From assembly GCA_020627885.1 (NCBI GenBank), contig JAHDGB010000001.1, positions 1 to 54,909 of the forward strand: a stretch of 54,909 bases of DNA, in the 5' to 3' direction. The notes beneath the pieces are model-generated. The model did no database searches. It was given only the letters and a program-made list of their open reading frames with translations, and was not told the DNA's origin. The translations under genes and the position numbers were made by a program. Numbering within the stretch: the first letter of the stretch is position 1; each line of letters opens with the position of its first letter. Below are positions 1-52,357 of this stretch, one piece after another. The stretch comes from Flavobacteriaceae bacterium. GTDB taxonomy: Bacteria > Bacteroidota > Bacteroidia > Flavobacteriales > Flavobacteriaceae.

Positions 1-3000
1 GCACAACTACGTACTCCCATTCAGTTTCTCCATTATTTGCTGTCCATGATATATCAGCACTTGTATCTGTTATGTTAGTAGCTGTAATTCCACTTGGTGG
101 TGCACAAGTTTCAGCTGCTGAACATGATCTGACATTAATTTGGTCTATTGCTATGTCTCCAGTAATATTAGTACCATCGCCACCATAAGCAAACTCTATA
201 TATATAGCTTCACCTAAATACGCATCTAAATTTACTCCCACTGCAGCCCACTCATCTGCATCTACACCTTGCAATTGTCCTTCCCACGAAAACACGTTTG
301 TAAACGGTCCTGTTGCAGAAGTAGACACACCAATATTTAAAGTTCCTGTTGCTGCACCATATGCATGCAAATAAAAAGATAATTCTGCACTATCTATATT
401 TTCAGAGAAATCGATAACTGGTGTAATAGCAGATGCTATATTTGTTTGGTTATTAGATGCCTCATATTCTAAATGCACTCCTGGGTTTCCATCCCATGAG
501 TTTAATGGCCCTGTATTTGGTGAGTTATCATTTGGATTTGTAATTCTCCAATTCCCTGTTGTAATATGACCGTTAAATCCAGTACCTGTCCAACCGGTTG
601 GATCTGTGTTTTCAGTAGTTCCAAAAGTTTCTATAAATACAACTGCTTCTGTTCCGTTAGAACCACAATTAACGCCAACTGGCTCTGCCGGAGGCAGTTT
701 TAAAGTTGTAAAAGATATTGGCCCTACCCAATTACTAAATCCGCCATTTAAACAATTAGCTCTTACATAGACTTCATATTCTGTTGAAGGATTCAATCCT
801 GTTACACTTGTATTAGTTGCTGTAACTGCTGTACCAGAACTTGTCGGTATCCCAGTCCCTATTGGTTGAACAACATATTCCCAATTCGATTCACTGCCAC
901 CTGCATTCCATGAAACATCAGCACTTACGGCAATAATATTAGATGCAGATAAGTTTGTAGGGGCTAAACAAAAATCGCCACAAGATTCGATCTTAATAGC
1001 ATCGATAGCAATATCTCCTGTACTAGCTGTCCCGTTTCCACTATAAGAAAATTCAATAAAAATTGTTTGCCCTATGTAACTGTCTAAATTTACTCCAACA
1101 GATACCCAATCTTCTTCTTCACTAGTCTGTAAATTTCCTGTCCATGAATAAGCTGTTGTAAATGGTCCACTAGCAGAAGTAGAAACACCTATATTTAATG
1201 TCCCAATAGCTGGGCCAAAAGCATGCATATAGAATGACAACTCAGCGCCATCTGCTGCGTTAGATAAATTTATTGCTGGCGTTATGGCAGACGCAACATT
1301 AGTTGAGCTTCCAGATGATTCATATTCTAAATGCACACCTTCATTACCATCCCATGTATTTAATGGTCCTGTTCCTGTTGTGTTTGCTCCTGGTTTTGTA
1401 ATTTGCCAATTTCCATTAGCTGCATTACCATTAAATCCTGTCCCTGTCCAACCTGAAGGCGCTACGTTTTGAGTAATCCCAAAACCTTCTTCAAAAGCTA
1501 TTGATGCGCTTCCAGTAGAACAAGTAACTCCTACTGGAACTGGTGGAGGGCCTAAAGTTGTAAACGTTATTGGTCCCGCCCATTCACTAAATCCATCAGT
1601 CAAACAATTCGCTCTTACATAGACTTCATATTCCGTTGTAGCGTTTAAACCAGTGGTATTCACATTATCTGCAGTTGTAGCTGTTCCTGAACTTGTTGGT
1701 ATCCCTGTTCCTACTGGTTGTATTACATACTCCCAATTAGACTCCCCTGCATTTGAAGTCCACGATACATTTGCGCTATTAATTGTTATATTACTCGCTA
1801 TTATGTTACTTGGAGCAGTACAAGAAACAATACACGATTCTATTTTTATTTGATCTATAGCTATATCTGCTTCAGCATTTGTACCTGTCCCACTATATGA
1901 AAACTCAATATATATTGTTTCCCCAATCTTATTATCTATATTAATTCCTACTGGAACCCATGCCTCTGCGTCTGTTAGTTGTAATTCTCCTGTCCATGCG
2001 TATATTGTATCAAAAGGCCCAGTTTGTGATGAAGACACACCGACATTAAGTGTTCCTATTGAATCCCCAAAAGCATGCATATAAAAAGATAATTCTGCAC
2101 TTCCAGAAGAAGATGTTAAATCAATAGCCGGAGTAATTGCTGAGGCCACATTTGTAGAATTTCCAGATCCTTCATATTCTAAATGCGCTCCAGGGTTAGA
2201 ATCCCACGAATCAGATGGGCCTGTATTTGCGGTATTAGCATTTGAAAGAGTAATTCTCCAATCTCCATTTATTAAATTTCCTTTGAATTCTGTTCCTGTC
2301 CATCCAGCTGGCACTGTATTCTCTGAAAGACCAAATTCTTCAGTAAATATATCTGTTAAAACTCCTGAAGAACAACTAACTCCTACTGGAGCTGGGGGTG
2401 GCATTTTTGCTGTTTTAAAATTCACAGGGCCATGCCACAAACTAAACCCATTAGATTCACAATTTGATCTAACATACACCTCGTAATCTGTATCTGCAGT
2501 TAAAACCGATAAGGTTGCATTTGTTACTGTTGTTGAAGTCCCATTCCCTGTAGGGCTTCCTATTCCTTGTGGCTGAACAATATATTCCCAACTCGTTTCA
2601 GAGCCATTAGACGTCCAGGAAATATCTGCCGTTATGGCTGTTATGTTATTAACTACAATATCGCTAGGGGCTATGCATACATTTCCACAAGCCTCCACTT
2701 TTATATTATCTAAAGCAATATCACCAGTATCTGCTGTACCAGTGGCATTATAAGAAAACTCTATATAAATTGTCTGCCCCATATAGGCATCCAAATCGAT
2801 ACCAACTGGCACCCATGCTTCTGCATCTGATCGTTGTAGTTCTCCATTCCATGTAAATACATTAGTAAAAGTCCCAGTAGACGAAGTAGATACACCAACA
2901 TTTAATGTCCCTATAGCTGTTCCATAGGCATGCATAAAAAATGATAATTCTGCACCATCTACTGCTGATCTCATATCAATAGCTGGTGTAATTGCTTTCG

Positions 3001-3538
3001 CTACAGTTGTTGCATTCCCTGAAGCATCATATTCTAAATGGATTCCATTTGCTGTTCCATCGCTTGAAGTTAATGGTCCTGTATTTGGTGTATTTACACC
3101 TGCTTGAGTAATTGCCCAATTTCCACCATTATTTGTTGTGCCATCAAAACCTGTTCCTGTCCATCCAAAAGGAGCAACCTTTTCTTCATTTCCAAAATTC
3201 TCATCGAATATCACTGTAGATAATCCTGTGGTACAAGTTACCCCAACAGGAGGGTTTGGTGGTGTTCTTGAAGTCGTAAAATTTATTGGCCCAACCCAAT
3301 TACTGTAACCACCAATTAAACAATTAGCTCTTACGTATACTTCGTATGTTGTTTCTGCGGTTAACCCCGTTGAATTATATGACGTTACTGTAGTTTCATT
3401 CCCTGTAGTAGTTGGTATTCCAGTTCCTGCTGTTTGAACAACGGTTTCCCAAACTGGCTCTGTACCCCCTGCTTCCCAATTAATATCTGCTGAATTATGG
3501 GTTATATTCGAAATTGTAATATTTGTAATGTCTGGACA
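1..3538 (-). repeat. Tandem in-frame coding repeat with a period of 852-864 nt (about 285 aa, one FN3 plus one MAM module). Units start on the minus strand at 3538, 2677, 1822, 970 and 106, and the last is truncated.
   Basis: The Cys codon that opens each FN3 module is in frame at those five coordinates. An identical 20-mer, ataaaaagataattctgcac, occurs at 371-390 and 2081-2100, with near copies near 1230 and 2935. The string tcatattctaaatgc recurs near 462, 1320 and 2172. Confidence 0.8.
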
Positions 3539-4135
3539 TGTTGGAGGGCCTTGAGATGTAGATGATAAAGTTGGTGAGCTCATACAAAAACCTGCAGCCC
3601 ATTGGTCACCATCATAATAGACAATACGGTATTTAAACCCTGTTAATTGTGAAACACTAAAGTTTTCAATGTTTAAAAAATCAGATTCAAAAGACACGAA
3701 AGATCCATTACAAAAATTAGAACTTGGGGCTCCTGGTGTTGAAGCCTCTATTGCATTACCCCAATTGATCCAAGTATTAGTATCTGCATTCCAATACTGC
3801 AACGCTATACTATCATTTACAGACTCCCATTTAAAAACGTATGTCGATTTAATTATTAAATAATTCTCTCCTGCTGTACGAGCTGAAGATATATCGATAA
3901 CTGGAGACTCTGCTGCTATTTTATCTTTTTCGTCTTGACCAGCTTCATTATCATCATAACCAAAATTAGAACCTGTTGTTGGATTGCCAATAAGAATCGC
4001 CGAGTTTGTACTAAATTCTCCTGCAACTGTTAAAGCCCAAGATGTATTTGGCCAATTTGCTGGCTCATTTACTGCCTGTGAAAAAATGTGTTGGTATACG
4101 GAAAATAGAAGTAGGGATAAAACTATCTTTTTCAT
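1..4135 (-). CDS. Large secreted surface protein with its 3' end cut by the window edge. It has a signal peptide, a unique N-terminal domain of about 200 aa, then at least 4.3 tandem [fibronectin type III + MAM] modules.
   Basis: Absent from the supplied ORF track because there is no stop inside the window. Hand translation of the minus strand from ATG 4135..4133 (MKKIVLSLLLFSVYQHIFSQAVNEP...) stays open to position 2, with frame confirmed at 3538, 2677, 1822, 1228, 970, 367, 106 and 4. An FN3-like pattern (C-x-P-x-I..SADISW...EYEVYVRANC..G.S.W.GP..FTT) alternates with a MAM-like pattern (GWTGTGF..W.I....NTGP...DG..G.HLEYE.SG....A.AITPAI....AELSFYMHAFG..IGTLNVGVS....GDIAIDxIKIEsC). Confidence 0.85.
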   Translation of the reverse strand, partial: MKKIVLSLLLFSVYQHIFSQAVNEPANWPNTSWALTVAGEFSTNSAILIGNPTTGSNFGYDDNEAGQDEKDKIAAESPVIDISSARTAGENYLIIKSTYVFKWESVNDSIALQYWNADTNTWINWGNAIEASTPGAPSSNFCNGSFVSFESDFLNIENFSVSQLTGFKYRIVYYDGDQWAAGFCMSSPTLSSTSQGPPTCPDITNITISNITHNSADINWEAGGTEPVWETVVQTAGTGIPTTTGNETTVTSYNSTGLTAETTYEVYVRANCLIGGYSNWVGPINFTTSRTPPNPPVGVTCTTGLSTVIFDENFGNEEKVAPFGWTGTGFDGTTNNGGNWAITQAGVNTPNTGPLTSSDGTANGIHLEYDASGNATTVAKAITPAIDMRSAVDGAELSFFMHAYGTAIGTLNVGVSTSSTGTFTNVFTWNGELQRSDAEAWVPVGIDLDAYMGQTIYIEFSYNATGTADTGDIALDNIKVEACGNVCIAPSDIVVNNITAITADISWTSNGSETSWEYIVQPQGIGSPTGNGTSTTVTNATLSVLTADTDYEVYVRSNCESNGFSLWHGPVNFKTAKMPPPAPVGVSCSSGVLTDIFTEEFGLSENTVPAGWTGTEFKGNLINGDWRITLSNANTANTGPSDSWDSNPGAHLEYEGSGNSTNVASAITPAIDLTSSSGSAELSFYMHAFGDSIGTLNVGVSSSQTGPFDTIYAWTGELQLTDAEAWVPVGINIDNKIGETIYIEFSYSGTGTNAEADIAIDQIKIESCIVSCTAPSNIIASNITINSANVSWTSNAGESNWEYVIQPVGTGIPTSSGTATTADNVNTTGLNATTEYEVYVRANCLTDGFSEWAGPITFTTLGPPPVPVGVTCSTGSASIAFEEGFGITQNVAPSGWTGTGFNGNAANGNWQITKPGANTTGTGPLNTWDGNEGVHLEYESSGSSTNVASAITPAINLSNAADGAELSFYMHAFGPAIGTLNIGVSTSASGPFTTAYSWTGNLQTSEEEDWVSVGVNLDSYIGQTIFIEFSYSGNGTASTGDIAIDAIKIESCGDFCLAPTNLSASNIIAVSADVSWNAGGSESNWEYVVQPIGTGIPTSSGTAVTATNTSVTGLNPSTEYEVYVRANCLNGGFSNWVGPISFTTLKLPPAEPVGVNCGSNGTEAVVFIETFGTTENTDPTGWTGTGFNGHITTGNWRITNPNDNSPNTGPLNSWDGNPGVHLEYEASNNQTNIASAITPVIDFSENIDSAELSFYLHAYGAATGTLNIGVSTSATGPFTNVFSWEGQLQGVDADEWAAVGVNLDAYLGEAIYIEFAYGGDGTNITGDIAIDQINVRSCSAAETCAPPSGITATNITDTSADISWTANNGETEWEYVVV

Positions 4136-4297
4136 TTTTTTTTGGGTTGTTAATCAATTAGGCGACTAAGCTAAATAAAATAATCATTGATAGCCCACTA
4201 ATACCAGTATAATAGACTAAATCATATAAATTCCCGATTAAAAGATTAAAAAAACAAAGAATTGTTCATTACTTGTTGAAAAAAATATTTTTTTTAC

Positions 4298-11849: not shown

Positions 11850-12272
11850 TTAACTTCCTATTTTAACAACTTCGTTTGCTTTTTTTCCTAGTGCCTCAAC
11901 ACTAATAATTTCTTTAACTCGAATACTAAATGGCCAACCCTCTTCTCCTGTTGGCAATGGAATAATCTCTCCTCTAACTACCACTTTAATTCCATCTGTT
12001 TTTTCTTTTCTATATTGGGCGCCCATTTTGTATAACTCGTGCATTTTATCATCTATTTTAACACCATATACTTCATGACCTGTTTGTAATACCGCAGCAT
12101 CCTCATAAAAAATAAATTCTCCACTTAAAAGTGTTAACCCGTCTTTTGTTTTTTCGGTTTGTTCCGATTTACTTGTTTCATCTATAGATTCTTCTTTAAC
12201 AGTTTTTGCGTCTTGCTTACAGCTTATAAAAGCTGAAATACTTAATAAAAAAATAAAAATGTGTTTTACCAT
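11850..12272 (-). CDS. Lipoprotein of unknown function embedded between sufB and sufC
   Basis: 140 aa with lipobox [21 protein letters not shown]. There is a 5-nt gap to the sufC start and a 51-nt gap from the sufB stop. Confidence 0.6.
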
Positions 12273-14122: not shown

Positions 14123-14155
14123 TACTTTACCAATTAGAATTAATCTAAATAATTG

Positions 14156-14163
14156 CAAATATA
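14156..14163 (-). promoter_or_regulatory. Bacteroidota-type -7 promoter box (TATATTTG on the minus strand) for the suf operon
   Basis: Perfect TAnnTTTG match 34 nt upstream of ATG 14122. Confidence 0.45.
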
Positions 14164-14231
14164 CAATTTCAGTCCCTTTTTTCCTCAGAACCTAACATTA
14201 TATTTACATATAGAGCTATAGTAAAAAACTA

Positions 14232-15314
14232 TTAATTTATAAAGTCCGGATTGGTCAGAAAAGAAGGATCTGACAACGATAGAAGAAATGCTTTTAAATC
14301 TGATTTATCTTGATCTGAAAGCCCTACACCTCCTTGGTCTATTTTTTTCATAAGTGGGTCTATAGTTTCAGAACGCTTTAACCCTTCACTATAGTGATTT
14401 ATAACTTCTTCTAGGGTATTAAAACGACCATCGTGCATATATGGTGCAGTGTAAGCAAGGTTACGAATTGATGGAGATTTAAATTTACCATAATCATTGG
14501 TATCTCCACTTACTGCTCCCAAACCTAAATCTGTAAATGTTTCGTCTAATCCGTTATTATGAAAAACATTATCTGTCCACAAAGGATTATTATTATCGCC
14601 ATGACAATGGAAACAATCACCTCGTTCTTCATCCATAAAAACATTAAAACCATTTAGTTCTTCGGCTGTTAAAGTAATTTCTCCTAACAGGTACTTATCA
14701 AACCTAGAATTACCAGAAATTAGAGTACGCTCAAATTGAGCCAAAGCTCTACTTACAAGTTCTTTTGTTATAACAGTATTATCCCCGAAAGCTTTATTAA
14801 ATAATTCTGGGTAATCAGAATTGCTCTTTAACTTTACAACAACATCATCCCAATTAGCATGCATTTCTATAGGGTTTTGCACAGGCTCCAAAGCTTGGCG
14901 TTCAAGACTTAATTCCTTCCCATCCCAAGCAAAGCGTTCATCAAAATTCCAAGCTAAATTAAATAACGGCATAGAATTTCGAGTCCCTTGATTACCGTCT
15001 ATACCTGTGCTAAATTGAGAGTTATCTGTAAATGCTTTTTCTGGCGCATGGCAATTAGCACAAGCCATAGTATTATCGCCAGACAAAATAGTATCGTAAA
15101 ATAATTTTTTACCTAAAGCTACACCCTCAAGAGTTTGTGGATTCCCGGTAGGTATTACAGGAGCAATTAATTTCTGCTCAAATAAGTTTGGTATTTTTAA
15201 TGCTAATGGTGTAGGCACATATTTTTCTACTACAGGATTAGTAGTGTCATCTTTTGAACAACTAATGCTAAAAAAACAAATTATTAAAACAGTATGTACC
15301 CAATATTTTCTCAC
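14232..15314 (-). CDS. Di-haem cytochrome c peroxidase family lipoprotein (CCP/MauG/MbnH-like)
   Basis: 360 aa with lipobox FFSISCSKDD and two CxxCH haem motifs (CANCH and CFHCH) at spacing typical of bacterial di-haem CCPs. Confidence 0.85.
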   Translation of the reverse strand: MRKYWVHTVLIICFFSISCSKDDTTNPVVEKYVPTPLALKIPNLFEQKLIAPVIPTGNPQTLEGVALGKKLFYDTILSGDNTMACANCHAPEKAFTDNSQFSTGIDGNQGTRNSMPLFNLAWNFDERFAWDGKELSLERQALEPVQNPIEMHANWDDVVVKLKSNSDYPELFNKAFGDNTVITKELVSRALAQFERTLISGNSRFDKYLLGEITLTAEELNGFNVFMDEERGDCFHCHGDNNNPLWTDNVFHNNGLDETFTDLGLGAVSGDTNDYGKFKSPSIRNLAYTAPYMHDGRFNTLEEVINHYSEGLKRSETIDPLMKKIDQGGVGLSDQDKSDLKAFLLSLSDPSFLTNPDFIN

Positions 15315-15323
15315 CTTAAACTT

Positions 15324-16109
15324 TTATTGTGTCACTGCTCCTAAAGAAAATACATTTTGCCCATTTTCATTCATCAATTTCTGAGCAGCAGAATTTCCCA
15401 TAAGCATTTGGTTATGAACACTCAAATCCCATACATTAGGACCTTTAAACCACTGAGCCACATTCATTTTTACTTCTATAGCAGTATTTGCATTTATTGA
15501 AACTATTCCTAGTTCTACATTTATAAAAGTTGGCTGATCTGGAAACGTTGGCGGACCATCTGGCATATTAGGATCAACCGCTCTAATATTGTGATAGTTA
15601 AACCCTGCTGATGGGCTACCATTAACTCTATACTTGCCATCGAGTTGCATATAATGATATCCCCCTCCCATAGATGGAGGAACACCAAAAGAAGCCGAAT
15701 TTAAATCTGCATAAGCTCCGTCTGTATTGTCTTCGGTTTTTAACCCATAAGTAAAAGACACTTTATATTCCCCAGCAGGCAGCTGAATTTCTGGAGTATA
15801 GCTTAAGTTTATACCATCGGCCACATTAATAAGGTTATGGCCATCGAACATTATTGCTTCTCCAGTAGAATTAGTAAATGTAACATCAGATATTAAATAT
15901 CTAAACCTAGGTCCTATATTTACATCGTCTCCATTTTCAGTAACATAATCTGTACTTTCCATATCTTCAGCTGTTACAGGCGTTCCATCCCAATCATGAA
16001 CAAAGTTAAGTGTTGCTTGAACTTTAACTATTACTTTATCATCTTCATCTTCACTACATGATATAAGTGTTATTATAAATAACAATAAAAGCGCTGTTGT
16101 CTTTCTCAT
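15324..16109 (-). CDS. MbnP-like lipoprotein, the putative partner/substrate of the adjacent di-haem peroxidase
   Basis: 261 aa with lipobox IITLISCSEDEDD. The blocks LNFVHDWDG...RFRYLISDVTF.N..G...GEYKVSFTYGL...GGGYHYMQLDGKY resemble the MbnP family as I recall it, and the gene sits 9 nt upstream of the peroxidase. Confidence 0.5.
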   Translation of the reverse strand: MRKTTALLLLFIITLISCSEDEDDKVIVKVQATLNFVHDWDGTPVTAEDMESTDYVTENGDDVNIGPRFRYLISDVTFTNSTGEAIMFDGHNLINVADGINLSYTPEIQLPAGEYKVSFTYGLKTEDNTDGAYADLNSASFGVPPSMGGGYHYMQLDGKYRVNGSPSAGFNYHNIRAVDPNMPDGPPTFPDQPTFINVELGIVSINANTAIEVKMNVAQWFKGPNVWDLSVHNQMLMGNSAAQKLMNENGQNVFSLGAVTQ

Positions 16110-16127
16110 TTTCTTTTTTTTAAATTT

Positions 16128-17498
16128 CTATTCTTTTTTAATTTTAATTAATAATATGTCACTAGAGCCTTTATTGTCTGCAATTACTCCATCACTACTA
16201 TAGGTTTCACCAACAGCAACTATACTACCATCATTTAATTCGGCAATATCGTATAAAAAATCTATATTAGATCCACCTATACTTACCTGCCCTTTTAAAT
16301 TACCATTAGAATCGATTTTAACAATCCAACCATCATTTTGCCCTCGATTAAGAGTTGCATCTCCATCCTCACTCCTTGATGCAGCTGCTATTAGATAGCC
16401 CCCATCACTAGAATTAACTATTTTTTCTGCTGTATCAAATTGACTACCACCTATTGATTTATTGGAAATCAAATCTCCTGTTGGAGATATTTTAATTAAC
16501 CATATATCTCCTAAGCCTTTATTTTCTGTTACATCCAAATCATTACTTCTAACGGATCCAATAATTAAATAATTTCCATCGTTAGTTTTTACAATACTAG
16601 AGCCTCTATCTATTTCTGAGCCACCATATGATTTCTCCCATTCTAAAATTCCTTCATTAGAGATTTTTGTAACCCAAAAATCATAAGAACCTTTATAACC
16701 TGTTATATCTACATCCGCACTATCAGAATCCCCTACAATAATATAACCTCCATCATCGGTCTGAATCACATCTTTTGGCTCTTCTGTAAGACTTCCTCCA
16801 AAATATTTACTCCATTCTAAATCACCGTTCTCAGCTATCTTAATTGCCCAATAATCGCCTCCTGCATGCACATCAGATAATGCTGTTAACGTATTCCCTT
16901 CTCCTTCAGAACTTGTAACATCTAATGATCCTGTTAATAAATAACCGCCTTCACTTGATTTAATTATTGATGTTCCGAAATCTGACCCTAAATAGCCATA
17001 TGATTTTTGCCATATAATACTTCCAGAAGAAGACAATTTAAGTACCCAATAATCTTTTGCACCAGCATTAGCCGTAACGTCTCCATCATTACTTGTACTG
17101 TAGCCTATTACAGCAAAGCTACCATCTGTGTTTTCTAAAATATCAAAACCTCGATCATTACCTGTTCCTCCATATGTTTTACTCCATTGTAAAACACTTG
17201 AAGCACTAAATTTTAACAAATACAAATCATAGTCCTCATTATCTTTATCTGTTATATCCCCATCTACACTTTGCGTGTATCCAAAAACAACATATCCCCC
17301 GTCTTGAGTTGCCACAATAGATCTAGCACTATCATTTTTACTACCCCCAAACGTTTTAACAACATCTACCACCCCTAAATTAGTAGTAACATTGTCGGAA
17401 ACTATAATGGCATTTTTATTAGCTGGCACATCAACAGAACACCCAACAAATATTAAAATGCTAAAAAAAACAATAATTACAATATTTTCTTTTTTCAT
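16128..17498 (-). CDS. Lipoprotein built from seven tandem repeats of about 58 aa, a predicted 7-bladed beta-propeller
   Basis: 456 aa with lipobox ILIFVGCSVD. The repeat consensus is (S/T)(Y/F)GGS..D.....I..T.DGGY...G...S.DGD.T...G..D.W..K....G...W.K. Confidence 0.7.
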   Translation of the reverse strand: MKKENIVIIVFFSILIFVGCSVDVPANKNAIIVSDNVTTNLGVVDVVKTFGGSKNDSARSIVATQDGGYVVFGYTQSVDGDITDKDNEDYDLYLLKFSASSVLQWSKTYGGTGNDRGFDILENTDGSFAVIGYSTSNDGDVTANAGAKDYWVLKLSSSGSIIWQKSYGYLGSDFGTSIIKSSEGGYLLTGSLDVTSSEGEGNTLTALSDVHAGGDYWAIKIAENGDLEWSKYFGGSLTEEPKDVIQTDDGGYIIVGDSDSADVDITGYKGSYDFWVTKISNEGILEWEKSYGGSEIDRGSSIVKTNDGNYLIIGSVRSNDLDVTENKGLGDIWLIKISPTGDLISNKSIGGSQFDTAEKIVNSSDGGYLIAAASRSEDGDATLNRGQNDGWIVKIDSNGNLKGQVSIGGSNIDFLYDIAELNDGSIVAVGETYSSDGVIADNKGSSDILLIKIKKE

Positions 17499-17531
17499 GG
17501 TTTTACTTTTTAGAGCATCATATTTTTAGTT

Positions 17532-19016
17532 TTAATCACTCTTTCTTACAACAAATAATCCTCTATCAATATCGCTAATAATAATATTTCCACTAGGAAA
17601 ATAAGGATATACGCTCCATACTCCATTAAAATCTGGAGCATCATCTTCAGGGTAGGTATCAAAATATCCTACTTCAGTTATCGGATTAACTTCCGATGCT
17701 ACATTTGATACGTCTAACACACGTAATCCGGCTCTATAATTTGCCAAATAATATTTATTCCCTTTTATATAGCCATTATGATCTATCGCAGAAGTTGTCC
17801 CTATATATGTGCTTAACAGTAATGGGTTATCCAAATCACTAAAATCAAAAACTAAAGTTTTGGTATTAAAACCAAAATCCAACTCATCTACTTCATCCCC
17901 AAGAATAAAATAACGCTGATCTTCTGTAAACCATCCTTGATGAGGATATGCAGCTTGAGAGTAACCTAATTTACCTAACGGGATAACATTTGCTTTATCA
18001 GTAACATCTAAAATTACTATTTCGTCTGTATTACCATTACTTCCAATATATATTTGCTTCCCTTCATGTTCTACATCAGGTCCAGAATATGTTATAACCT
18101 GAGCATCATGACTATAACCTGCATCAGAATATCCCCCTAGTGACAAAGGTGCTAATGGATTAGAAATATCTACAAACGTTGGTCCTCCTCCATATGTATT
18201 GCATCCAACTAGATAGGCAACAGCTTCCGTTTCGTTAATAACAATATTATGGCAACTTCCTACTTCATTATAAACCGTATCTGGATTAAAAATTTCAGGA
18301 ATTGTTACTATATTTCTCAACCTTGTTAAATCAAAAACTTGCATGCCATGAGCTCCTACATTATCTGCAACAATAAAGGCATAATCATTATATATTTTAA
18401 CATCACGCCATACGCTATCACTAGTAGCTGTATTTATACGCCCTAAATACACTGGTTCGGTTGGGTTAGATATATCTACAAAAGCTGTACTATTAGATGT
18501 TCCTATTATAGCATACTCTTTTAAGGTAGTAGAGTCAGTCCATCCCCAAATATCACTCCCCCTGGGGGTTCCTACATTTGAAGCTAAAACTGATATAGGA
18601 ATATGTGCTAATAAATCATAGCCTTTACATGGGTATTCTCCAGCTCTTCCATTTTCACAATAAAAAAGAGGGGTAACACTTTCACAAGCATCACCCACTC
18701 CATTATTATCTTTATCCTGTTGATCTGTATTAGCTATGTTAATGCAATTATCTACATTATTAGCAATACCATCCCCATCATTATCATTAGGGTTACTCCC
18801 ATCACAAACATCTCCAACACCATCACCATCTTGATCTTCTTGATTTGGGTTTGCTATAGAAATACAATTATCGATCGTATTTAAAATACCATCATTATCG
18901 TCATCTACAACTGTAGGGCTACCACCTGAATGATCGTCATTTTTTTTGCAACTAATTGTTATTAAACATAAAGTAAGGACAAAAACATTAAAATATTTAA
19001 AACAGTAGTACTTCAT
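17532..19016 (-). CDS. Choice-of-anchor-B / LVIVD-repeat propeller protein. This is the lipoprotein form, with two N-terminal thrombospondin type-3 Ca-binding repeats.
   Basis: 494 aa with lipobox LITISCKKND. TSP3 motifs are DDDNDGILNTIDNCISIANPNQEDQDGDGVGDVCD and NDNDGDGIANNVDNCINIANTDQQDKDNNGVGDAC. The core is CENGRAGEYPCKGYDLLAHIP...DIWGWTD...EYAIIG...TAFVDISNP...WRDVKIY..YAFIVADN.GAHGMQVFDL. There is no C-terminal sorting domain. Confidence 0.65.
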   Translation of the reverse strand: MKYYCFKYFNVFVLTLCLITISCKKNDDHSGGSPTVVDDDNDGILNTIDNCISIANPNQEDQDGDGVGDVCDGSNPNDNDGDGIANNVDNCINIANTDQQDKDNNGVGDACESVTPLFYCENGRAGEYPCKGYDLLAHIPISVLASNVGTPRGSDIWGWTDSTTLKEYAIIGTSNSTAFVDISNPTEPVYLGRINTATSDSVWRDVKIYNDYAFIVADNVGAHGMQVFDLTRLRNIVTIPEIFNPDTVYNEVGSCHNIVINETEAVAYLVGCNTYGGGPTFVDISNPLAPLSLGGYSDAGYSHDAQVITYSGPDVEHEGKQIYIGSNGNTDEIVILDVTDKANVIPLGKLGYSQAAYPHQGWFTEDQRYFILGDEVDELDFGFNTKTLVFDFSDLDNPLLLSTYIGTTSAIDHNGYIKGNKYYLANYRAGLRVLDVSNVASEVNPITEVGYFDTYPEDDAPDFNGVWSVYPYFPSGNIIISDIDRGLFVVRKSD

Positions 19017-19043
19017 TCATTCCATTCCCTTTTATCTGTATTC

Positions 19044-20534
19044 TTATCTTAAAACCAACTTTTTTGTTACTCTATCATTTATTTTCACCAAGTATATCCC
19101 TTTAGAACGGTTATTCATTGGTAAAATGTAAATACTTTTATTTATATTATCTTTTTTGAAAACACTCTGTCCTAAAACATTATACACTTCAACAGATTCA
19201 ACTTGACTGCTATTTCCTGAAACTTTTATTATAGCGTTAGAAGAGGTAGGATTAGGAGATAATGTAAATTTTTGATCAAAATTAAAGTCATCCGTACTTA
19301 ATGTATTACTCTTTCTAACGACGAAAAGACCTCTTTCCGTATCACTTAATATGATATTACCACTCTTAAAGTATGGGTAATTACTCCAAAGACCGCCATT
19401 AGGACTATTATTATTTGCTGGATATGTATCGAAAAAACCTATTTCCGTCATTTGATCTGAATTCGCTGCTATGTTTGTTATATCTATAACACGTAAACCT
19501 GCTCTATAATTTGACAAATAGAACGTATTCCCTTTAACATAACCGTTGTGATCTGATGCCGTTGTTGGGCCATCATATATGAATGCTACTTTTGGGCTAT
19601 CTAAATCTTCAAGATCAAAAACGATTGTTCTTGTATTTCCCCCAGAAGTGGGTCCATTAAATTCGTCAGTCTCATCACCAAGTATAAAGAAACGTTGGTC
19701 TTCCGTAAACCAACCTTGGTGTGTATAACTTACGTTTGCATAATCTAGTGCGCTAATTTTAGTTACATTATTCTTATCCGTAACATCGGCAACAACTATT
19801 TCATCTTCATTACTTCCAATATATATTTCTTTACCTTTATAGTTTCCATCTGGTCCGTTATATGTAACCACCTGAGCATCATGAGAATACCCTCCTTCAG
19901 AAAATCCTCCAATTCTTGATGGGTTTAAAGGATCTGAAATATCTACAAAAACGGGACCGCCATCAAAATTTTCAGGAGACCTTCCGCAACCAACCAAGTA
20001 TGCTACAGCCTCACTTTCATTAATGACTATATTATGACAGCTTCCTAAACCGTCTTTTAATGTTGCATCCGCAGTGAACACAGTATATGTCGTAACACCT
20101 CTTAATCGCTTTAAATCAAAAACTTGCATCCCATGATCTCCTACATTATCAGCAACAATAAAAGCATGATTATTATACGTTTTTACGTCTCTCCATACTT
20201 GAGAACCAGCAGCGGTATCTAACCGACCTAACTTTATAGGGTTTACTGGGTCTGTAACATCTACAAAAGCTGTAGCATTATTTAAACCTACTATAGCGTA
20301 TTCTTTATTTGTATCCGGGTCTGTCCATCCCCAGATATCATTAACGAAATTAGTAGAACTGTTTCCTAATTCACCTCTAGGAATTCTAGACATTAAGTCG
20401 TAATCATTACATGGGTAGTCCCCTGCCATACCATTATCACATGGTACAATTTGAGCATTTATATTAGCCTGGAAAAACAAGCAAAAAGCAATTAAAGAAA
20501 TGTAATTTTTCATCATATCATTATTTTTTAGCAC
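19044..20534 (-). CDS. Choice-of-anchor-B / LVIVD-repeat propeller protein. This is the T9SS-secreted form, with a C-terminal Por sorting domain.
   Basis: 496 aa and a paralog of the downstream gene (CDNGMAGDYPCNDYDLMSRIP...DIWGWTD...HGMQVFDL...). The C-terminus, LSPNPTSSNAIIKVS...VEVYNVLGQSVFKK...GIYLVKINDRVTKKLVLR, looks like a T9SS type-A CTD. The true start is probably MMKNY/MKNY a few codons in. Confidence 0.7.
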   Translation of the reverse strand: MLKNNDMMKNYISLIAFCLFFQANINAQIVPCDNGMAGDYPCNDYDLMSRIPRGELGNSSTNFVNDIWGWTDPDTNKEYAIVGLNNATAFVDVTDPVNPIKLGRLDTAAGSQVWRDVKTYNNHAFIVADNVGDHGMQVFDLKRLRGVTTYTVFTADATLKDGLGSCHNIVINESEAVAYLVGCGRSPENFDGGPVFVDISDPLNPSRIGGFSEGGYSHDAQVVTYNGPDGNYKGKEIYIGSNEDEIVVADVTDKNNVTKISALDYANVSYTHQGWFTEDQRFFILGDETDEFNGPTSGGNTRTIVFDLEDLDSPKVAFIYDGPTTASDHNGYVKGNTFYLSNYRAGLRVIDITNIAANSDQMTEIGFFDTYPANNNSPNGGLWSNYPYFKSGNIILSDTERGLFVVRKSNTLSTDDFNFDQKFTLSPNPTSSNAIIKVSGNSSQVESVEVYNVLGQSVFKKDNINKSIYILPMNNRSKGIYLVKINDRVTKKLVLR

Positions 20535-20890
20535 ATGGTTATAATTACGAAATTAGAAGAAAAATCAACATAAATGTGTAATTTTTGTTAAAAATCATTT
20601 TTTTTCTATGAAATAACGCAATATCAAGACAAAATACTCATAAAAAAAACATTTTTCTCATTTCCAAAACCAAATCACTCTTAATATCCTAATATATAGA
20701 CAGAATATTTAGTTAAAAATTTTATTAATCAACAACTTACTGTTTTTTTAATAAACAATCCTATTAAACAATTATAACTACAACATAATATATGCAAGTG
20801 TCATCAAGTTTAAACTCTACTCAACCATAAAAATTACTAATAAATAATTTAATTCATGCATATTAACTCAAGTTTTCGTTGAAAGGTTAT

Positions 20891-20902: not shown

Positions 20903-21955
20903 ATGATAGAAGATAAAAACCAAAATCGCACCTCTTTAAATGAAATAGGGGAATTTAAACTAATTGAACTCCTTACTCGGAATTTTAAAATAAAGCATAA
21001 ATCTACAATAAAAGGCATTGGGGACGATGCTGCTGTTATAGACCCAGATCAAAAACAAATTGTTATTACCACAGATCTCTTAGTGGAAGGCGTACATTTT
21101 GATTTAAGCTACGTTCCATTGAAACACCTTGGTTATAAATCTGTAATTGTGAACCTATCTGATGTTTATGCTATGAATGCAGAAGCGACTCAAATTACAA
21201 TATCTATTGCTGTTTCTAACCGATTTCCATTAGAAGCTTTAGAAGAATTGTATGCTGGGGTAGAAACTGCCGCTAAAATATATAATGTTGATGTTGTTGG
21301 TGGAGACACGACTTCATCAAATTCTGGTTTATTAATTTCTATTACTGCTATTGGAGTTATAAATAAAGGAGAGGAAATCTATCGAAATGGAGCAAAACCT
21401 AACGATCTATTAGTTGTAACTGGTGACTTAGGAGGTGCATATATGGGGCTTCAAATATTAGAACGTGAAAAAGAAGTGTTTAAAGTAAACCCTAATAACC
21501 AACCTGATTTAGATGGCTATACCTACATAATAGAACGACAATTAAAACCAGAGGCAAGAAAAGATATTATAAAACTACTTAAAGATTTAGGGGTCAAACC
21601 AACTGCAATGATTGACATAAGTGATGGGTTATCTTCAGAGATACTACACCTTTGTATGCATAGTAAGGTAGGGTGTGATATATATGAAAATAAAATCCCA
21701 CTAGATCCTCAAGTTATATCTACTTGCGAAGAGTTTAAAATTGATAGTACAACAATAGCTCTTAACGGTGGGGAAGATTATGAATTATTAATGACAATCT
21801 CTCAAGAAGATTTTCCAAAAATAAAAGCAAATCCTAATTTAACAATTATTGGTCACATAACAGAAGAAAATGCAGGAGCAAACTTAATTACAAGAGCTGA
21901 AACTAAAATACCACTACAAGCACAAGGTTGGAAAAATTTCAATAACTCTAATTAA
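20903..21955 (+). CDS. thiL: Thiamine-monophosphate kinase ThiL
   Basis: AIR-synthase-like fold motifs IGDDAAVI and GGDTT, with a typical N-terminus LNEIGEFKLIE. I use ATG 20903 (MIEDK...) because the track's 20879 start is a TTG extension. Confidence 0.85.
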   Translation: MIEDKNQNRTSLNEIGEFKLIELLTRNFKIKHKSTIKGIGDDAAVIDPDQKQIVITTDLLVEGVHFDLSYVPLKHLGYKSVIVNLSDVYAMNAEATQITISIAVSNRFPLEALEELYAGVETAAKIYNVDVVGGDTTSSNSGLLISITAIGVINKGEEIYRNGAKPNDLLVVTGDLGGAYMGLQILEREKEVFKVNPNNQPDLDGYTYIIERQLKPEARKDIIKLLKDLGVKPTAMIDISDGLSSEILHLCMHSKVGCDIYENKIPLDPQVISTCEEFKIDSTTIALNGGEDYELLMTISQEDFPKIKANPNLTIIGHITEENAGANLITRAETKIPLQAQGWKNFNNSN

Positions 21956-22230
21956 GAAGTCATTCTATATACTGTAGGAGAAATGACTTCTCTACTTAAC
22001 CTTGTTATTTTCTTTTTATGAATACTTAATAAAATTTCATTTATCTCTCTATATTTAGGAGACAATTCTATTAAGCTACCGTTACCATTAGTAGTTAACT
22101 CATGATTACAATTTGAACAAGCGTATTCTTTTACATGATGAGTAATTTTCTTTGATACCAAATAATTATGGCCAAACATTACACAATAAAGTTTAGAAAG
22201 TAAGGTAGGTTTTTGATTAACAGTTTTCAT
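21952..22230 (-). CDS. Small hypothetical protein with a C-x4-H...C-x2-C zinc-ribbon-like pattern
   Basis: 92 aa containing KLYCVMFGHNY...YACSNCNHE. Its stop overlaps the thiL stop in the tetranucleotide TTAA (21952-21955). Confidence 0.4.
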   Translation of the reverse strand: MKTVNQKPTLLSKLYCVMFGHNYLVSKKITHHVKEYACSNCNHELTTNGNGSLIELSPKYREINEILLSIHKKKITRLSREVISPTVYRMTS

Positions 22231-49184: not shown

Positions 49185-49223
49185 AAAGGTCGTTTTAAAA
49201 ACAATTATAAAACGACCTTTTTT
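49185..49223. terminator. Bidirectional rho-independent terminator between convergent genes
   Basis: Perfect 13-bp stem aaaggtcgtttta (49185-49197) / taaaacgaccttt (49208-49220) with a 10-nt loop. A T-run follows on the plus strand and an A-rich run precedes it. Confidence 0.6.
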
Positions 49224-51651
49224 AAAAGTTATACTTTAAAGATAGTATCAAGTTTCTTCCTGGTGCAGTAATCCCGGAAGAGTATGTTCTATAACGTTGA
49301 TCTGTAACATTCTCCAAACTAGAACTTAATAGTAACTCTTTATTTAACTGGTATTGTACTCTAAAATTTAGAGTATGCCATGAAGGTGAATATGGCTTGC
49401 CATTATCATCTAAAGCATATAAATAGGCTTTTCCTAGTTCTGAAGGTGCTAATTGATTTGAAGATAAAGTGCCATTGAAATTAATAAAAGCATCAGCTTG
49501 AAACTTATCTTTTTTCCATATTACATGAGCATTTCCAAAACTTGGTGAAACATGTCGAACTGGGGCTTCTATTGCATCTGCTTCTTGAGTACCACCTATC
49601 ACATTATACTGAGAAGTGACCCTTAAAGCATTATTCAACTGTATTTTAATACCAATTTCAAAACCATAAATCCATGCTTTAGAGGCGTTTTGAATGGATT
49701 GTATATTGCTCAATTCCCCATCATAAACAATCTGTGTTTCGCCATTTAAATTACCGTTTTTTCTCACCAAGGCTCTATTTAAATAGGTGTAATAAGTCCC
49801 TGCATCTATAATAAAAAAATCATGAAAATTAAGACGCAACCCTAACTCTCCACTATAAGCATATTCAGGTTTAAGATCTTCGTTTGGTACAACTACCGTT
49901 CCTGGTTCAGAATCAAACACTTTTCCAATATCATCGATATTAGGAGCTCTAAATGCAGAACCAAAATTTAATTTCCACTGCATTTTATTATCTGGCAACC
50001 AGGTTATACCTGCAGTACCTGTAAGTGCATCAGAATTATTTTTGGCTTCATTAAACGGTAAGTTTAAATAAACATTATTGGCTTCAAAATTTGCCTTAGA
50101 GTTAATAGCATTATATCTTAATCCTGTTTGTAATACAAACTTTGTATTGGGCTTATATTTCATATTAGTATAGATCGCTGCAGATTGCCATGATGATCCA
50201 TTCGGATATCTTGTTACTGCATTTTCTAGATTACCCGTTTGAATGTTCCTGTTTTGAGCATTAGAATTTACATTATTATAAACATATTCTATTCCATAAA
50301 ATATTTTAGTCGTTTTTATTAGTGTTTTTTCAAAATCTAAATTAAACGATATTGCATCAACTTTTTCTTCGCGTTCTCTCCTGTTTTGAGATTGAAAATT
50401 ACGATCTACCCTGCTCTCATTAAATTTTTGATAGGCTGCGGTAACATTTATTTTATCATATAAATTTGAACGACTACTCCTTTTAGTAACATTCAAGTTT
50501 GTCATAAACCAACGCTGTGGCCCATAAAACCATTCAGCAGATCTTAATTGTTCATTTCGGTATCTAATTAATCGATCATAACGAGGTATATCTGTGCTTG
50601 CCGTATAAAAGACACCCAAATCAAAAGTTAAATTTTCTTTTGGCCTGTATAGTACTTTCTGCATAATATTATATTGATCATAACCAGAAAAGCGCTGCAA
50701 CAAAGGATTGTTATTTAAAACAGTAGTATCAATATTATTATTTGTTATAACAAATTCTGGCCTCAAATAATCATCAGGTCCATTTTTCCCCATTCTTAAA
50801 TCATTAAAAGAAGTATAACTTATGTTTGTTAACCCCCCCCATTTTCTATAACCTAAATTAATATCTATGTGCCCTGTTTTTTCTTCGCTAGCTGTTGCAT
50901 ATCTTATAGCAACATTAGTCTTTGTATACAAAGAATCTGTAGAAGATAGTTTTGGTTTTTTAGTATAAAACCCCATTACTCCGCCAATTGCATCACTTCC
51001 ATATATAACCGATGCTGCACCTAAGATAACTTCGGTGTTTTCAATTGAAAAAGGGTCTACAGATATTACATTTTGCAAATTACCTCCTCTAAAAATAGCA
51101 TTGTTCATTCTTACACCATCTACAGTTATTAATAATCTGTTGGTAGAAAAACCTCTAATCATTGGGCTACCTCCTCCTAATTGGCTTTTTTGCACATAGA
51201 CTTGCCCAGTAGACTTTAATAAATCTGCACTGGTTTGCGGGTTAGTAAAGGCTATCGTTTTTGCATTTACACTCGCTATTTTTTTCGGTATATCCCTTTT
51301 GGTTTGTTCAAACTTTGAGGCAGAAATAACAATCTCATCTAAATCTTGCATATTTAATTTTAACCGAACGATACCGTTAAGAATCATAGCCTTTTTAAGT
51401 GCTTTATTTTGAAATCCTAAATGTTGGAAATAAATAATCTCATCGTTTTTAAATTTATCTAAATTAACTTCTCCATCTAAATTGGTAATATGACTTTGTG
51501 TTTTGTCTTCATTGTATATCGCTACTCCAGGAATTGCTGTTTTAGTCTTACTATTAATCACTTTAATATCTTGTGAGTTAGAAATTAAAACACTTAAAAG
51601 AAAAATGATAACACTAAAAAAAGATGATTTATTTTTAATTAAAAACGTCAT
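49222..51651 (-). CDS. TonB-dependent receptor with an N-terminal carboxypeptidase-regulatory-like domain
   Basis: 809 aa with a signal peptide. The CarbopepD_reg-like segment is IKVINSKTKTAIPGVAIYNE...DGEV, and the plug region reads ...SPMIRGFSTNRLLITVDGVRMNN.... The beta-barrel ends in LSLKYNF. Confidence 0.85.
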   Translation of the reverse strand: MTFLIKNKSSFFSVIIFLLSVLISNSQDIKVINSKTKTAIPGVAIYNEDKTQSHITNLDGEVNLDKFKNDEIIYFQHLGFQNKALKKAMILNGIVRLKLNMQDLDEIVISASKFEQTKRDIPKKIASVNAKTIAFTNPQTSADLLKSTGQVYVQKSQLGGGSPMIRGFSTNRLLITVDGVRMNNAIFRGGNLQNVISVDPFSIENTEVILGAASVIYGSDAIGGVMGFYTKKPKLSSTDSLYTKTNVAIRYATASEEKTGHIDINLGYRKWGGLTNISYTSFNDLRMGKNGPDDYLRPEFVITNNNIDTTVLNNNPLLQRFSGYDQYNIMQKVLYRPKENLTFDLGVFYTASTDIPRYDRLIRYRNEQLRSAEWFYGPQRWFMTNLNVTKRSSRSNLYDKINVTAAYQKFNESRVDRNFQSQNRREREEKVDAISFNLDFEKTLIKTTKIFYGIEYVYNNVNSNAQNRNIQTGNLENAVTRYPNGSSWQSAAIYTNMKYKPNTKFVLQTGLRYNAINSKANFEANNVYLNLPFNEAKNNSDALTGTAGITWLPDNKMQWKLNFGSAFRAPNIDDIGKVFDSEPGTVVVPNEDLKPEYAYSGELGLRLNFHDFFIIDAGTYYTYLNRALVRKNGNLNGETQIVYDGELSNIQSIQNASKAWIYGFEIGIKIQLNNALRVTSQYNVIGGTQEADAIEAPVRHVSPSFGNAHVIWKKDKFQADAFINFNGTLSSNQLAPSELGKAYLYALDDNGKPYSPSWHTLNFRVQYQLNKELLLSSSLENVTDQRYRTYSSGITAPGRNLILSLKYNF

Positions 51652-52357
51652 TAAATATTTTTAAAGATTTTGGCTTTTTAAAACTACCCAAATGTAGCTC
51701 AAAATAGGCTAAAATAAATGATAAAAAAGCCTGTCTTTGTTTACCATTTATCTCAATGGTATTAAGCGCATCAAATGTTGTGCCTAACAACATTTTCAAA
51801 AGGGTTAAATTCTCATTAAAAACAGAATATTTCCCTTTAAATTCATATTGAAATTCGCCTTCTAAAATGTTAAAATACGGCGCATCGATTTTTGTGTCAT
51901 CAGGAAAAAAACCTAAGTATTTTGTTAAGTTTAGCAAAAAAAGTAAATGAAAATTAGAATAGACTTCATTATTAGTATCAAACCATATCAATGATGTTTC
52001 AATATAATTATAAAGTAATTCATTTTTTTCCTCTTCTTTTAAAGCATACGATAATACTTCTGCTATAAACATAGCAACAGTACTTTTCATTATATTAGTA
52101 TGAAGACTTGTATATATATAATTCGGTTTTATTTCTTTCACAAACTGCAAAGAACGATTCGTCTTATAATCTGTTTCTAATTGTAATTGTGATAATAACT
52201 GAAAGTAAGCTATTTTAGAGTTTTTCTTTTTTGATTTAAGAATACTTTTTAATAAGTAACTAACTATTCCATTTTGTTGTGTATAACACTTAATTATTAA
52301 ATCATGATCGTTATATCTAATCTTCGATAAAACGATGGCTTTTGTGCTAGTAAGCAT
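51635..52357 (-). CDS. recO: DNA repair protein RecO
   Basis: 240 aa with N-terminal OB-fold signature TKAIVLSKIRYNDHDLIIKCYTQQNGIVSY. Confidence 0.8.
   Translation of the reverse strand: MLTSTKAIVLSKIRYNDHDLIIKCYTQQNGIVSYLLKSILKSKKKNSKIAYFQLLSQLQLETDYKTNRSLQFVKEIKPNYIYTSLHTNIMKSTVAMFIAEVLSYALKEEEKNELLYNYIETSLIWFDTNNEVYSNFHLLFLLNLTKYLGFFPDDTKIDAPYFNILEGEFQYEFKGKYSVFNENLTLLKMLLGTTFDALNTIEINGKQRQAFLSFILAYFELHLGSFKKPKSLKIFNDVFN

Follow-up and report, generated by a model that had tools for sequence, protein, structure and literature searches.

A five-gene cluster encoding predicted exported proteins

We analysed a 54,909-nucleotide stretch of DNA from a Flavobacteriaceae bacterium (assembly GCA_020627885.1, contig JAHDGB010000001.1), hereafter the window, in which five genes on the minus strand (14232-20534) lie between thiL and the iscA-sufBCDS (suf) operon. 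An earlier examination of the same DNA from its letters alone (the sequence-only reading) had described these genes as an envelope operon comprising three beta-propeller proteins and an MbnP/MbnH-like pair, and had proposed for them a redox or metal-handling role at the cell surface. The genes, numbered in the order of transcription, are listed with the families or comparisons that characterize each product.

Gene 1, 19044-20534, minus strand: secreted choice-of-anchor-B propeller, LVIVD-type and seven-bladed, with a type IX secretion system (T9SS) type-A C-terminal sorting domain (TIGR04312, TIGR04183, PF18962)
Gene 2, 17532-19016, minus strand: lipoprotein (ITISC) with N-terminal thrombospondin type 3 (TSP3) calcium-binding repeats and a choice-of-anchor-B propeller (TIGR04312, PF02412, PF08309)
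Gene 3 (prop3), 16128-17498, minus strand: seven-bladed beta-propeller lipoprotein (FVGC) of 456 amino acids (aa), with no curated family (repeats, AlphaFold2 model, Foldseek)
Gene 4, 15324-16109, minus strand: divergent MbnP-family lipoprotein (LISC, then the acidic export signal SEDEDD) (PF20243, Foldseek, hhalign)
Gene 5, 14232-15314, minus strand: MauG/MbnH-like di-haem enzyme, predicted as a lipoprotein (SISC, then the export signal SKDD) (PF03150, TIGR04039)

The physical description given by the sequence-only reading was accurate: open reading frame (ORF) coordinates agree exactly, the five co-directional genes are separated by gaps of 27, 33, 18 and 9 nt, signal peptides can be read at all five N-termini and lipobox cysteines at four of them (ITISC, FVGC, LISC and SISC), and the last gene carries two CxxCH motifs. 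The N-terminus of gene 1 has instead a signal-peptidase-I type end (ANINA/Q), in addition to the T9SS tail at its other terminus, and its true start is probably ATG at 20516 or 20513, not the GTG at 20534. A scan of the cluster placed terminator-like sites inside coding sequence only, with none in the four short gaps; the five genes are presumably co-transcribed.

Three propellers of two families

Genes 1 and 2 match the choice-of-anchor-B model TIGR04312 at 514.8 and 530.5 bits, respectively (cut-off 100), in agreement with the assignment proposed earlier. The T9SS C-terminal sorting domain of gene 1 (TIGR04183, 41.9 bits against a cut-off of 23; PF18962, 37.9 against 27) matches the solved T9SS sorting domains 8glk/8glj, while gene 2 contains TSP_3 (PF02412, 54 bits) and LVIVD (PF08309, 36 bits) sequences, and a copy of this second type is present in nearly all related loci. 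Choice-of-anchor-B genes number from one to four per locus, and their anchor alternates among genomes between a lipoprotein N-terminus and a T9SS tail. The searchable literature yielded no entry for "choice-of-anchor B" under that name, and nothing linking LVIVD or choice-of-anchor B to MbnP/MbnH or peroxidases.

The choice-of-anchor-B domain comprises seven repeats, opened in gene 1 by W68, W114, H167, H218, H272, H329 and W383. The same four His and three Trp recur without exception in 23 choice-of-anchor-B sequences, one of which is just 29% identical; because the residues occupy an equivalent position in each blade, they are predicted to line the central channel as a ring, an arrangement that suggests a metal site. 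The sole relative in the PDB found by sequence is a haloalkylphosphorus hydrolase (phosphotriesterase) of Sphingobium, with an E-value of 5e-4 confined to the repeat motif. At this level of weak, repeat-based similarity H167 of gene 1 aligns with chain residue His389 of the phosphotriesterase structure 5ioj, which we take to be a metal ligand. The enzyme is described, in a title cited in PMC11656708, as a seven-bladed propeller with a binuclear metal centre.

The third propeller, prop3, matched nothing above threshold in Pfam or NCBIfam. Its seven repeats of about 58 aa each and an AlphaFold2 (AF2) model of propeller form (predicted local distance difference test, pLDDT, 81.4) bear out the seven-bladed propeller lipoprotein of the sequence-only reading. 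Foldseek returned the propeller domain of CylK as the best match (template modelling score, TM, 0.77; E-value 5e-21), and BtuG-type vitamin B12-binding surface lipoproteins at TM of about 0.45; these are likenesses at the level of fold only, from which no ligand-binding or catalytic residues can be transferred, and prop3, unlike BtuG-type proteins, has no adjacent TonB-dependent transporter. Wherever a related locus extends far enough, the gene is syntenic. Elsewhere, without the MbnP/MbnH pair, there is also a prop3-like protein that has a T9SS tail.

A divergent MbnP-fold lipoprotein

The product of gene 4 was to be compared with MbnP models, and the match to PF20243 proved significant (75.5 bits, cut-off 27), as it did for 50 of 50 diverse relatives. 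Its AF2 model (pLDDT 81.6) retrieved chains of the MbnP structure 7L6G as all of its top six PDB matches in Foldseek (probability 1.0; TM 0.51-0.58; 11-13% identity), 7L6G being the one structure matched with high confidence, and a profile of the 50 relatives aligned with canonical MbnP, taken from the supplementary GenBank file of PMC3621798, at 97.3% hhalign probability. Sequence profiles of the MbnP-like family found no match to 7L6G in the PDB, so the link to that structure rested on the fold search and hhalign. We regard membership of gene 4 in the broad MbnP family as sound.

Membership in the canonical subfamily is another matter. Gene 4 gave no match, even at an E-value of 10, to NCBIfam TIGR04052 (MbnP_like_WxW; cut-off 140 bits), to which canonical MbnP scores 287.5 bits and two subfamily members that retain the Trp (P0349 and P0263) just 21-22 bits. 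The four-Cys motif is absent, the sole Cys being that of the lipobox (Cys18). In MbnP the copper site is formed by His, Met, water and kynurenine 174, the last arising from a Trp of the conserved WxW motif, and a Trp-to-Tyr change strongly lowers copper binding (PMC11951088). The sequence-only reading had proposed a search for this modified-Trp site; in the hhalign alignment the conserved Met corresponds to F141 of gene 4, and the first and second Trp of WxW to V143 and M147, respectively. Gene 4 is thus predicted to encode a divergent MbnP-fold protein, not a canonical WxW MbnP, and since it is without the WxW Trp, the preceding Met, the four-Cys motif and a TIGR04052 match, the kynurenine/copper chemistry of MbnP does not appear transferable to it as stated.

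Other features of the site are retained. Among 365 members of the Bacteroidota MbnP subfamily, H152 is kept in 97%, M154 in 95% and H173 in 96% (352/365). H173 aligns with the His of PVHLG/MVHVG and may be a copper ligand. Distant subfamily members keep Met-x-Trp-Pro and an intermediate clade has Trp-x-Trp-Pro; all 120 of the 120 closest relatives of gene 4 have Val or Ile at position 143. This position is the strongest covarying site in the subfamily: Trp143 pairs with Gly175 and Asn194 (210 sequences W/G) and Val143 with Ile175 and Thr194 (139 sequences V/I), a large/small to small/large swap, two residues away from His173, which suggests that Trp143 packs beside this His and that the clade of the window has filled that space. 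The W143V/G175I swap may reflect a single evolutionary event, and is in that respect suggestive rather than a statistical proof.

Another conserved Trp lies near the N-terminus, where His38-x-Trp40 is invariant in the clade of the window; a Trp at position 40, position 143 or both is found in 358/365 subfamily members. This makes a move of the Trp from 143 to 40 an attractive idea, but mutual information couples 143 with 175 and 194, not with 40, and we retain the move as no more than a candidate.

A MauG/MbnH-like di-haem enzyme

Gene 5 matches the CCP_MauG family (PF03150) at 200 bits and carries its CxxCH motifs at residues 85 (CANCH) and 234 (CFHCH). Its best NCBIfam family is MbnH (TIGR04039), at 267.2 bits against a curated cut-off of 362.85 and a score of 467 for canonical MbnH; the comparison model for MauG, TIGR03791, gave 193 bits (cut-off 444). 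The enzyme shares 37% identity with MbnH from the methanobactin operon of Cupriavidus basilensis. The best PDB match is BthA of Burkholderia thailandensis (6e1c; 184 bits, 3.6e-53), ahead of classical peroxidases and MauG, and the alignment with it is nearly end to end. The earlier proposal of an MbnP/MbnH-like pair therefore stands at the level of Pfam families, the 7L6G fold, the hhalign probability and the identity to MbnH; it falls short of the curated MbnH cut-off and of any match to WxW-type MbnP.

The ligand environment is informative. Tyr294 of MauG is an axial haem ligand that sets MauG-type, protein-oxidising enzymes apart from His/Met peroxidases. Tyr308 of gene 5 aligns with this residue and with the Tyr of the IDIYSEG sequence of BthA (the shared motif being EEVI-x-x-YSEG), and alignments to classical peroxidases end just short of it; Trp130, in an FAWDG motif, occupies the inter-haem Trp position of the di-haem family. 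Because MbnH is the best family, BthA the best structure and Tyr308 lies at the position of MauG Tyr294, we conclude that gene 5 encodes a predicted MauG/MbnH-like enzyme and not a plain peroxidase.

Gene order and inheritance in Flavobacteriaceae

The survey of the five-gene order proposed in the sequence-only reading was carried out on one genome per species, from which the best 80 of 280 loci were kept. All belong to Flavobacteriaceae, their genera including Winogradskyella, Algibacter, Lacinutrix, Bizionia, Aestuariivivens, Seonamhaeicola, Hyunsoonleella, Formosa and others; with Lacinutrix sp. Hel_I_90 they form a set of 81 close loci. The propellers are strictly syntenic with the pair, and none of the findings that the sequence-only reading had named as refuting it was made. 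In 79/79 loci with enough upstream sequence, one to four choice-of-anchor-B genes are followed by prop3 and then by the MbnP-like gene, and in 80/80 with enough downstream sequence the MbnH-like gene comes directly after the MbnP-like gene (as across the 9-nt gap of the window). A divergent thiL gene (AIRS family in relatives) lies upstream of the first choice-of-anchor-B gene and is syntenic in 73 loci. The MbnH-like protein is the best conserved of the five, with a median identity to the window of 66%, compared with about 56% for choice-of-anchor B, 53% for prop3 and 50% for the MbnP-like protein; the corresponding figures for flanking genes are 91% (SufB), 88% (SufC) and 78% (ThiL).

The same layout occurs in the intermediate clade that bears the Trp, represented by a Lutibacter-like genome, Urechidicola croceus and Aequorivita nionensis, the Aequorivita locus having a single choice-of-anchor-B gene with a T9SS tail in place of TSP3 repeats; the operon without the canonical Trp is that of Winogradskyella, Algibacter, Lacinutrix and the window. 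The operon is therefore older than the loss of the Trp, and the idea that association with propellers coincided with that loss was discarded.

A different picture emerged from 80 metagenome loci (L084-L163) of more distant members of the MbnP subfamily. Of the 49 loci that extend far enough downstream, 28 have an MbnH-like gene adjoining the MbnP-like gene. Across all 80 loci, profile searches found no prop3 and a choice-of-anchor-B homologue in only one, L151, on the opposite strand about 3 kb away; other neighbours were heterogeneous and included a TonB-dependent receptor at one locus. As the core order is fixed in Flavobacteriaceae and absent around the 80 distant loci, the association with propellers is a Flavobacteriaceae-specific extension of the pair, and within the family it is too consistent for chance. 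The best-supported reading takes the cluster as an operon that has been passed down vertically throughout Flavobacteriaceae and that encodes a protein module of the cell surface, and we consider it likely, with good confidence, that it is one functional unit built on the MbnP-fold/MbnH-like pair.

Two further observations concern the distant loci. The remaining 21 of the 49 MbnP-subfamily genes have no adjoining MbnH-like gene, such that some MbnP-like proteins bearing the Trp lack a dedicated neighbouring haem partner. In L151 (6680-10634), genes for an FG-GAP T9SS protein and, on the opposite strand, an LVIVD/choice-of-anchor-B-like T9SS protein come after the distant pair, which may have become associated with propellers of this kind independently.

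Predicted location at the cell surface

Experimentally defined export signals of Bacteroidota lipoproteins take the forms C-X-K-(D/E)2-X, SDDDD and SDDFE (PMC5080379). The start of the MbnH-like lipoprotein (CSKDDT) fits the first of these, and that of the MbnP-like lipoprotein (CSEDEDD) the SDDDD/SDDFE type. Across loci, at least two acidic residues at positions +2 to +6 were found in 67/68 N-termini of the MbnP-like protein, 37/50 of prop3 and 36/67 of the MbnH-like protein. A PorZ-like T9SS component is encoded in the same window as the T9SS-tailed gene 1. A precedent is offered by SACCP/MopE, in which a surface-associated di-haem peroxidase stands beside a kynurenine copper protein (PMC3621798). 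On account of the lipoprotein export signals and the T9SS tail, it is reasonable to place the whole module, provisionally, at the cell surface. That part of the earlier proposal of a surface redox or metal machine is accordingly plausible, and the part that borrowed the Trp-to-kynurenine copper chemistry is not carried over.

Boundaries of the cluster and relation to the suf operon

The regions bounding the five genes are as follows.

thiL/gene 1 intergenic region, 20535-20878, between divergent genes: presumed to hold the promoter from which the five genes are transcribed
Boundary to the suf operon, 14123-14231, minus strand: suf -7 box TATATTTG at 14163-14156 and palindrome TTTAGAttaatTCTAA at 14149-14134, followed by iscA/sufA at 14122-13793

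The sequence-only reading had placed the cluster 73 nt from suf and had seen in this proximity a hint of a link to metal homeostasis; the distance needs correction and the link is not supported. The 73-nt figure takes as its end point a mechanically assigned TTG start at 14158 that falls within a conserved promoter box, and the true start of iscA/sufA is most likely the ATG at 14122 (MIKVSEV..., 109 aa as in relatives), giving a gap of 109 nt. In 72 of 77 loci a -7 box of Bacteroidota type (TATATTTG or TATCTTTG) lies about 40 nt 5' of the iscA ATG and is followed by a palindrome, TTAGA-N5-TCTAA; the position of both relative to iscA is kept whatever the length of the gap. The perfect palindrome TTTAGAttaatTCTAA, a candidate suf operator, has one copy in the window, and no copy with two or fewer mismatches was found in the thiL-gene 1 intergenic region. 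Regulation shared with suf through this operator, absent upstream of the cluster, was therefore rejected.

The iscA-sufBCDS genes are co-directional with and adjacent to the cluster in 77/79 informative loci, and in the Lutibacter-like, Urechidicola and Aequorivita genomes also. The distance to iscA ranges from 77 nt to 5.1 kb, one locus (L001) having an opposite-strand gene for a 1379-aa protein in between; two others (L038 and L079) have an intact cluster followed by unrelated genes and no suf, and among the distant loci no MbnP-like/MbnH-like pair adjoins suf. With thiL conserved to the same degree on the opposite flank, inheritance of gene order is the best explanation for the adjacency. 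A scan of the cluster/suf gap found no terminator-like hairpin, and some read-through into suf is possible. Taken together, these features point to suf as an independent, separately regulated unit whose adjacency is positional.

No convincing operator was found upstream of the five-gene cluster, and no perfect TAnnTTTG box on the minus strand of 20535-20878; a sigma-70 promoter scan is not meaningful for Bacteroidota, and an Rfam search of the window gave no matches. We did observe, in the thiL-to-first-gene intergenic regions of loci L001-L081, a conserved element, TGTAAATTGCTAAAAAAA, just 5' of the first choice-of-anchor-B gene in about 25-35 loci. The window has TGCTAAAAAA as its counterpart, overlapping the mechanically assigned GTG start at 20534; the element may belong to a promoter, a leader or a ribosome-binding region.

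A proposed activity and its alternatives

We tentatively propose, with confidence a little short of even, that the cluster encodes a surface module whose MauG/MbnH-type enzyme acts on a partner from the same operon, oxidising one of its aromatic residues, and that the assembly handles a metal, most likely copper. Gene 1 would be exported through the T9SS and the products of genes 2-5 as lipoproteins, of which at least the MbnP-like and MbnH-like proteins have predicted surface-export signals. The haem enzyme, with a His/Tyr-ligated second haem and with peroxide as oxidant, would carry out long-range oxidation of an aromatic residue on its partner. Because the clade has lost the canonical Trp and yet the haem enzyme remains the best conserved member of the operon, the target would have to be other than that Trp, candidates being Trp40 of the MbnP-like protein (His38-x-Trp40) or the propellers. 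The product would be a metal-handling assembly, again most likely for copper, in which the MbnP-like protein (through His173, His152 and Met154) and the propellers (through the four predicted channel-lining His) may bind the metal or pass it on at the surface. Gene content, fold, motifs, synteny, the loss of the canonical Trp and the promoter and operator that suf has for itself are observed; co-transcription, the surface location, the oxidised residue, the metal and any role of the propellers are inferred.

Several observations weigh against this proposal. Transporter genes, regulatory genes and known copper genes are all missing from the cluster. Gene 4 lacks both the Trp that yields kynurenine and the Met preceding it and also fails to match the WxW family, and gene 5 scores below the curated MbnH threshold. 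The canonical site may have been lost rather than moved, W143V covarying with G175I and N194T as if a pocket had been filled; there is no direct coupling between positions 40 and 143 (rank 3755 of 28680 by mutual information). For the His/Trp set, a position at the hub of the propeller is predicted from sequence only. Finally, haem is attached to c-type cytochromes in the periplasm, and surface display of a folded c-type cytochrome lipoprotein is suggested here by a motif.

Alternatively, the propellers could be the functional core, acting as surface metalloenzymes (e.g., hydrolases) with an axial His-ligated metal, to which the pair would serve as a dedicated metallochaperone or maturation system before or after export. 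Invariance of the four-His/three-Trp set down to 29% identity, the alignment of H167 with 5ioj His389 within a weak, repeat-level similarity to the binuclear-metal propeller of Sphingobium, the variable copy number (1-4) and interchangeable anchor expected of a "payload", and the disappearance of the canonical MbnP site in the clade of the window are all consistent with this arrangement; we nonetheless think it unlikely, since the PDB similarity is limited to the repeat motif at an E-value of 5e-4, no catalytic residues can be named, and pairs without such propellers in 79/80 distant loci indicate that the pair has a function of its own. A related and distinctly unlikely variant makes the choice-of-anchor-B propellers the real clients of a surface-exposed haem enzyme, which would furnish them with a cofactor, either a metal centre or an aromatic residue that has been oxidised or cross-linked, the Trp-less MbnP-fold protein having been re-purposed as an adaptor or metallochaperone; if true, it would represent a new extracellular system of protein-derived cofactors, exported via the T9SS and the Bacteroidota lipoprotein route.

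The haem protein might instead be a plain envelope peroxidase removing H2O2, with lipoproteins and propellers that are adhesins or binding proteins sharing just a promoter. PF03150 does cover ordinary bacterial cytochrome c peroxidases, which are also the next-best PDB matches, and the propellers have no recognisable catalytic family. Such an enzyme is, however, difficult to reconcile with Tyr308 at the position of MauG Tyr294, where ordinary peroxidases carry a Met ligand, with BthA and MbnH rather than classical enzymes as the best matches, and with strict adjacency of an MbnP-fold partner in all 80 informative loci, and we judge this account improbable. More improbable still is a role in iron supply for Fe-S assembly, tied functionally or transcriptionally to suf. 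Co-directional adjacency in 77/79 loci and three further genera, the potential for read-through across a gap with no hairpin and a lipoprotein gene inside the suf operon would accommodate it; against these stand the box and palindromic operator that suf has for itself in 72/77 loci, the operator's absence 5' of the cluster, a gap of 77 nt to 5.1 kb that in one genome holds an opposite-strand gene, two intact clusters before unrelated genes, distant pairs that never adjoin suf, and the equal synteny of thiL, by which conserved gene order alone suffices.

Comparison with characterized systems

The protein families of the cluster, and the pair as a kind of system, are already known. MbnP and MbnH of methanobactin operons (Methylosinus trichosporium OB3b, 7L6G) share with the window the order MbnP then MbnH, the fold and the conserved His (H173). 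In contrast to OB3b MbnP, the window protein (about 12% identity to 7L6G) is without the four-Cys motif and has Phe-x-Val...Met for Met-x-Trp-x-Trp; new to it are the conserved His38-x-Trp40 of its clade and GGGY-His152-Tyr-Met154 of the subfamily. The window pair, moreover, consists of lipoproteins with predicted surface-export signals, and it lies next to genes for propellers rather than beside methanobactin genes or one for a TonB-dependent transporter: as the sequence-only reading had noted, no TonB-dependent transporter is among the cluster genes, the nearest such receptor being 30 kb distant, and thiL and iscA-sufBCDS occupy the flanks where an MbnA precursor, MbnB/MbnC or MbnT might have been expected of a methanobactin operon.

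In MopE/SACCP of Methylococcus capsulatus and CorA/CorB of Methylomicrobium album, the gene for a surface di-haem peroxidase likewise stands beside that of a kynurenine copper protein (PMC3621798, PMC11951088). These systems offer the best precedent for a MauG-like enzyme at the cell surface, but their partner has another fold, and neither propellers nor T9SS are involved. MauG, acting on pre-methylamine dehydrogenase, is also a di-haem enzyme with Tyr at the axial ligand position and modifies a protein substrate by long-range oxidation. The MauG substrate complex includes a seven-bladed propeller subunit; the window has no mau genes, however, and its propellers belong to unrelated families. 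BthA, although close to gene 5 in sequence, is a proteobacterial periplasmic protein.

New here is that the pair is constantly linked to two families of propellers and is predicted to lie at the cell surface, and that the MbnP-like protein has naturally lost its defining Trp while undergoing a compensating change; the His-rich set of the propellers is new as well. MbnP/MbnH pairs are widespread; here a fixed set of partners across a bacterial family provides concrete candidates for what the pair acts on or with. Operons with the Trp (Lutibacter-like, Urechidicola, Aequorivita) and without it constitute a natural experiment on whether MbnH needs this residue. The association also supplies a first functional context for the unstudied choice-of-anchor-B (LVIVD) propeller family, and, as marine Flavobacteriaceae are abundant, a conserved surface metal/redox module is of relevance to the biology of trace metals and peroxide on the surfaces of algae.

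Additional features of the window and related loci

Within the suf operon, between sufB and sufC, the window encodes a 140-aa predicted lipoprotein (11850-12272, minus strand; lipobox FISC) with no Pfam or NCBIfam family, which is syntenic in 76/81 close loci (26-74% identity) and absent in the Lutibacter-like (L164) and Urechidicola (L165) loci. In one Winogradskyella locus (L007) the gap of about 450 nt from the MbnH-like gene to iscA contains an ORF for a Cys-rich protein of 109 aa (11861-12190, plus strand) resembling a small ORF next to thiL in the window (21952-22230, minus strand); the ORF at the matching place next to thiL in L001 and L166 is DUF1660 (PF07874). A TonB-dependent receptor and the PorZ-like T9SS component are encoded at 49222-51651 and 52357-54732, both on the minus strand, at a distance of about 30 kb from the five genes. 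A gene that starts near 4150 and runs off the left end of the window (1-4150, minus strand) encodes a secreted protein with fibronectin-type-3-like repeats, longer than 1384 aa; G+C content in this stretch is 39%, compared with about 30% elsewhere in the window.

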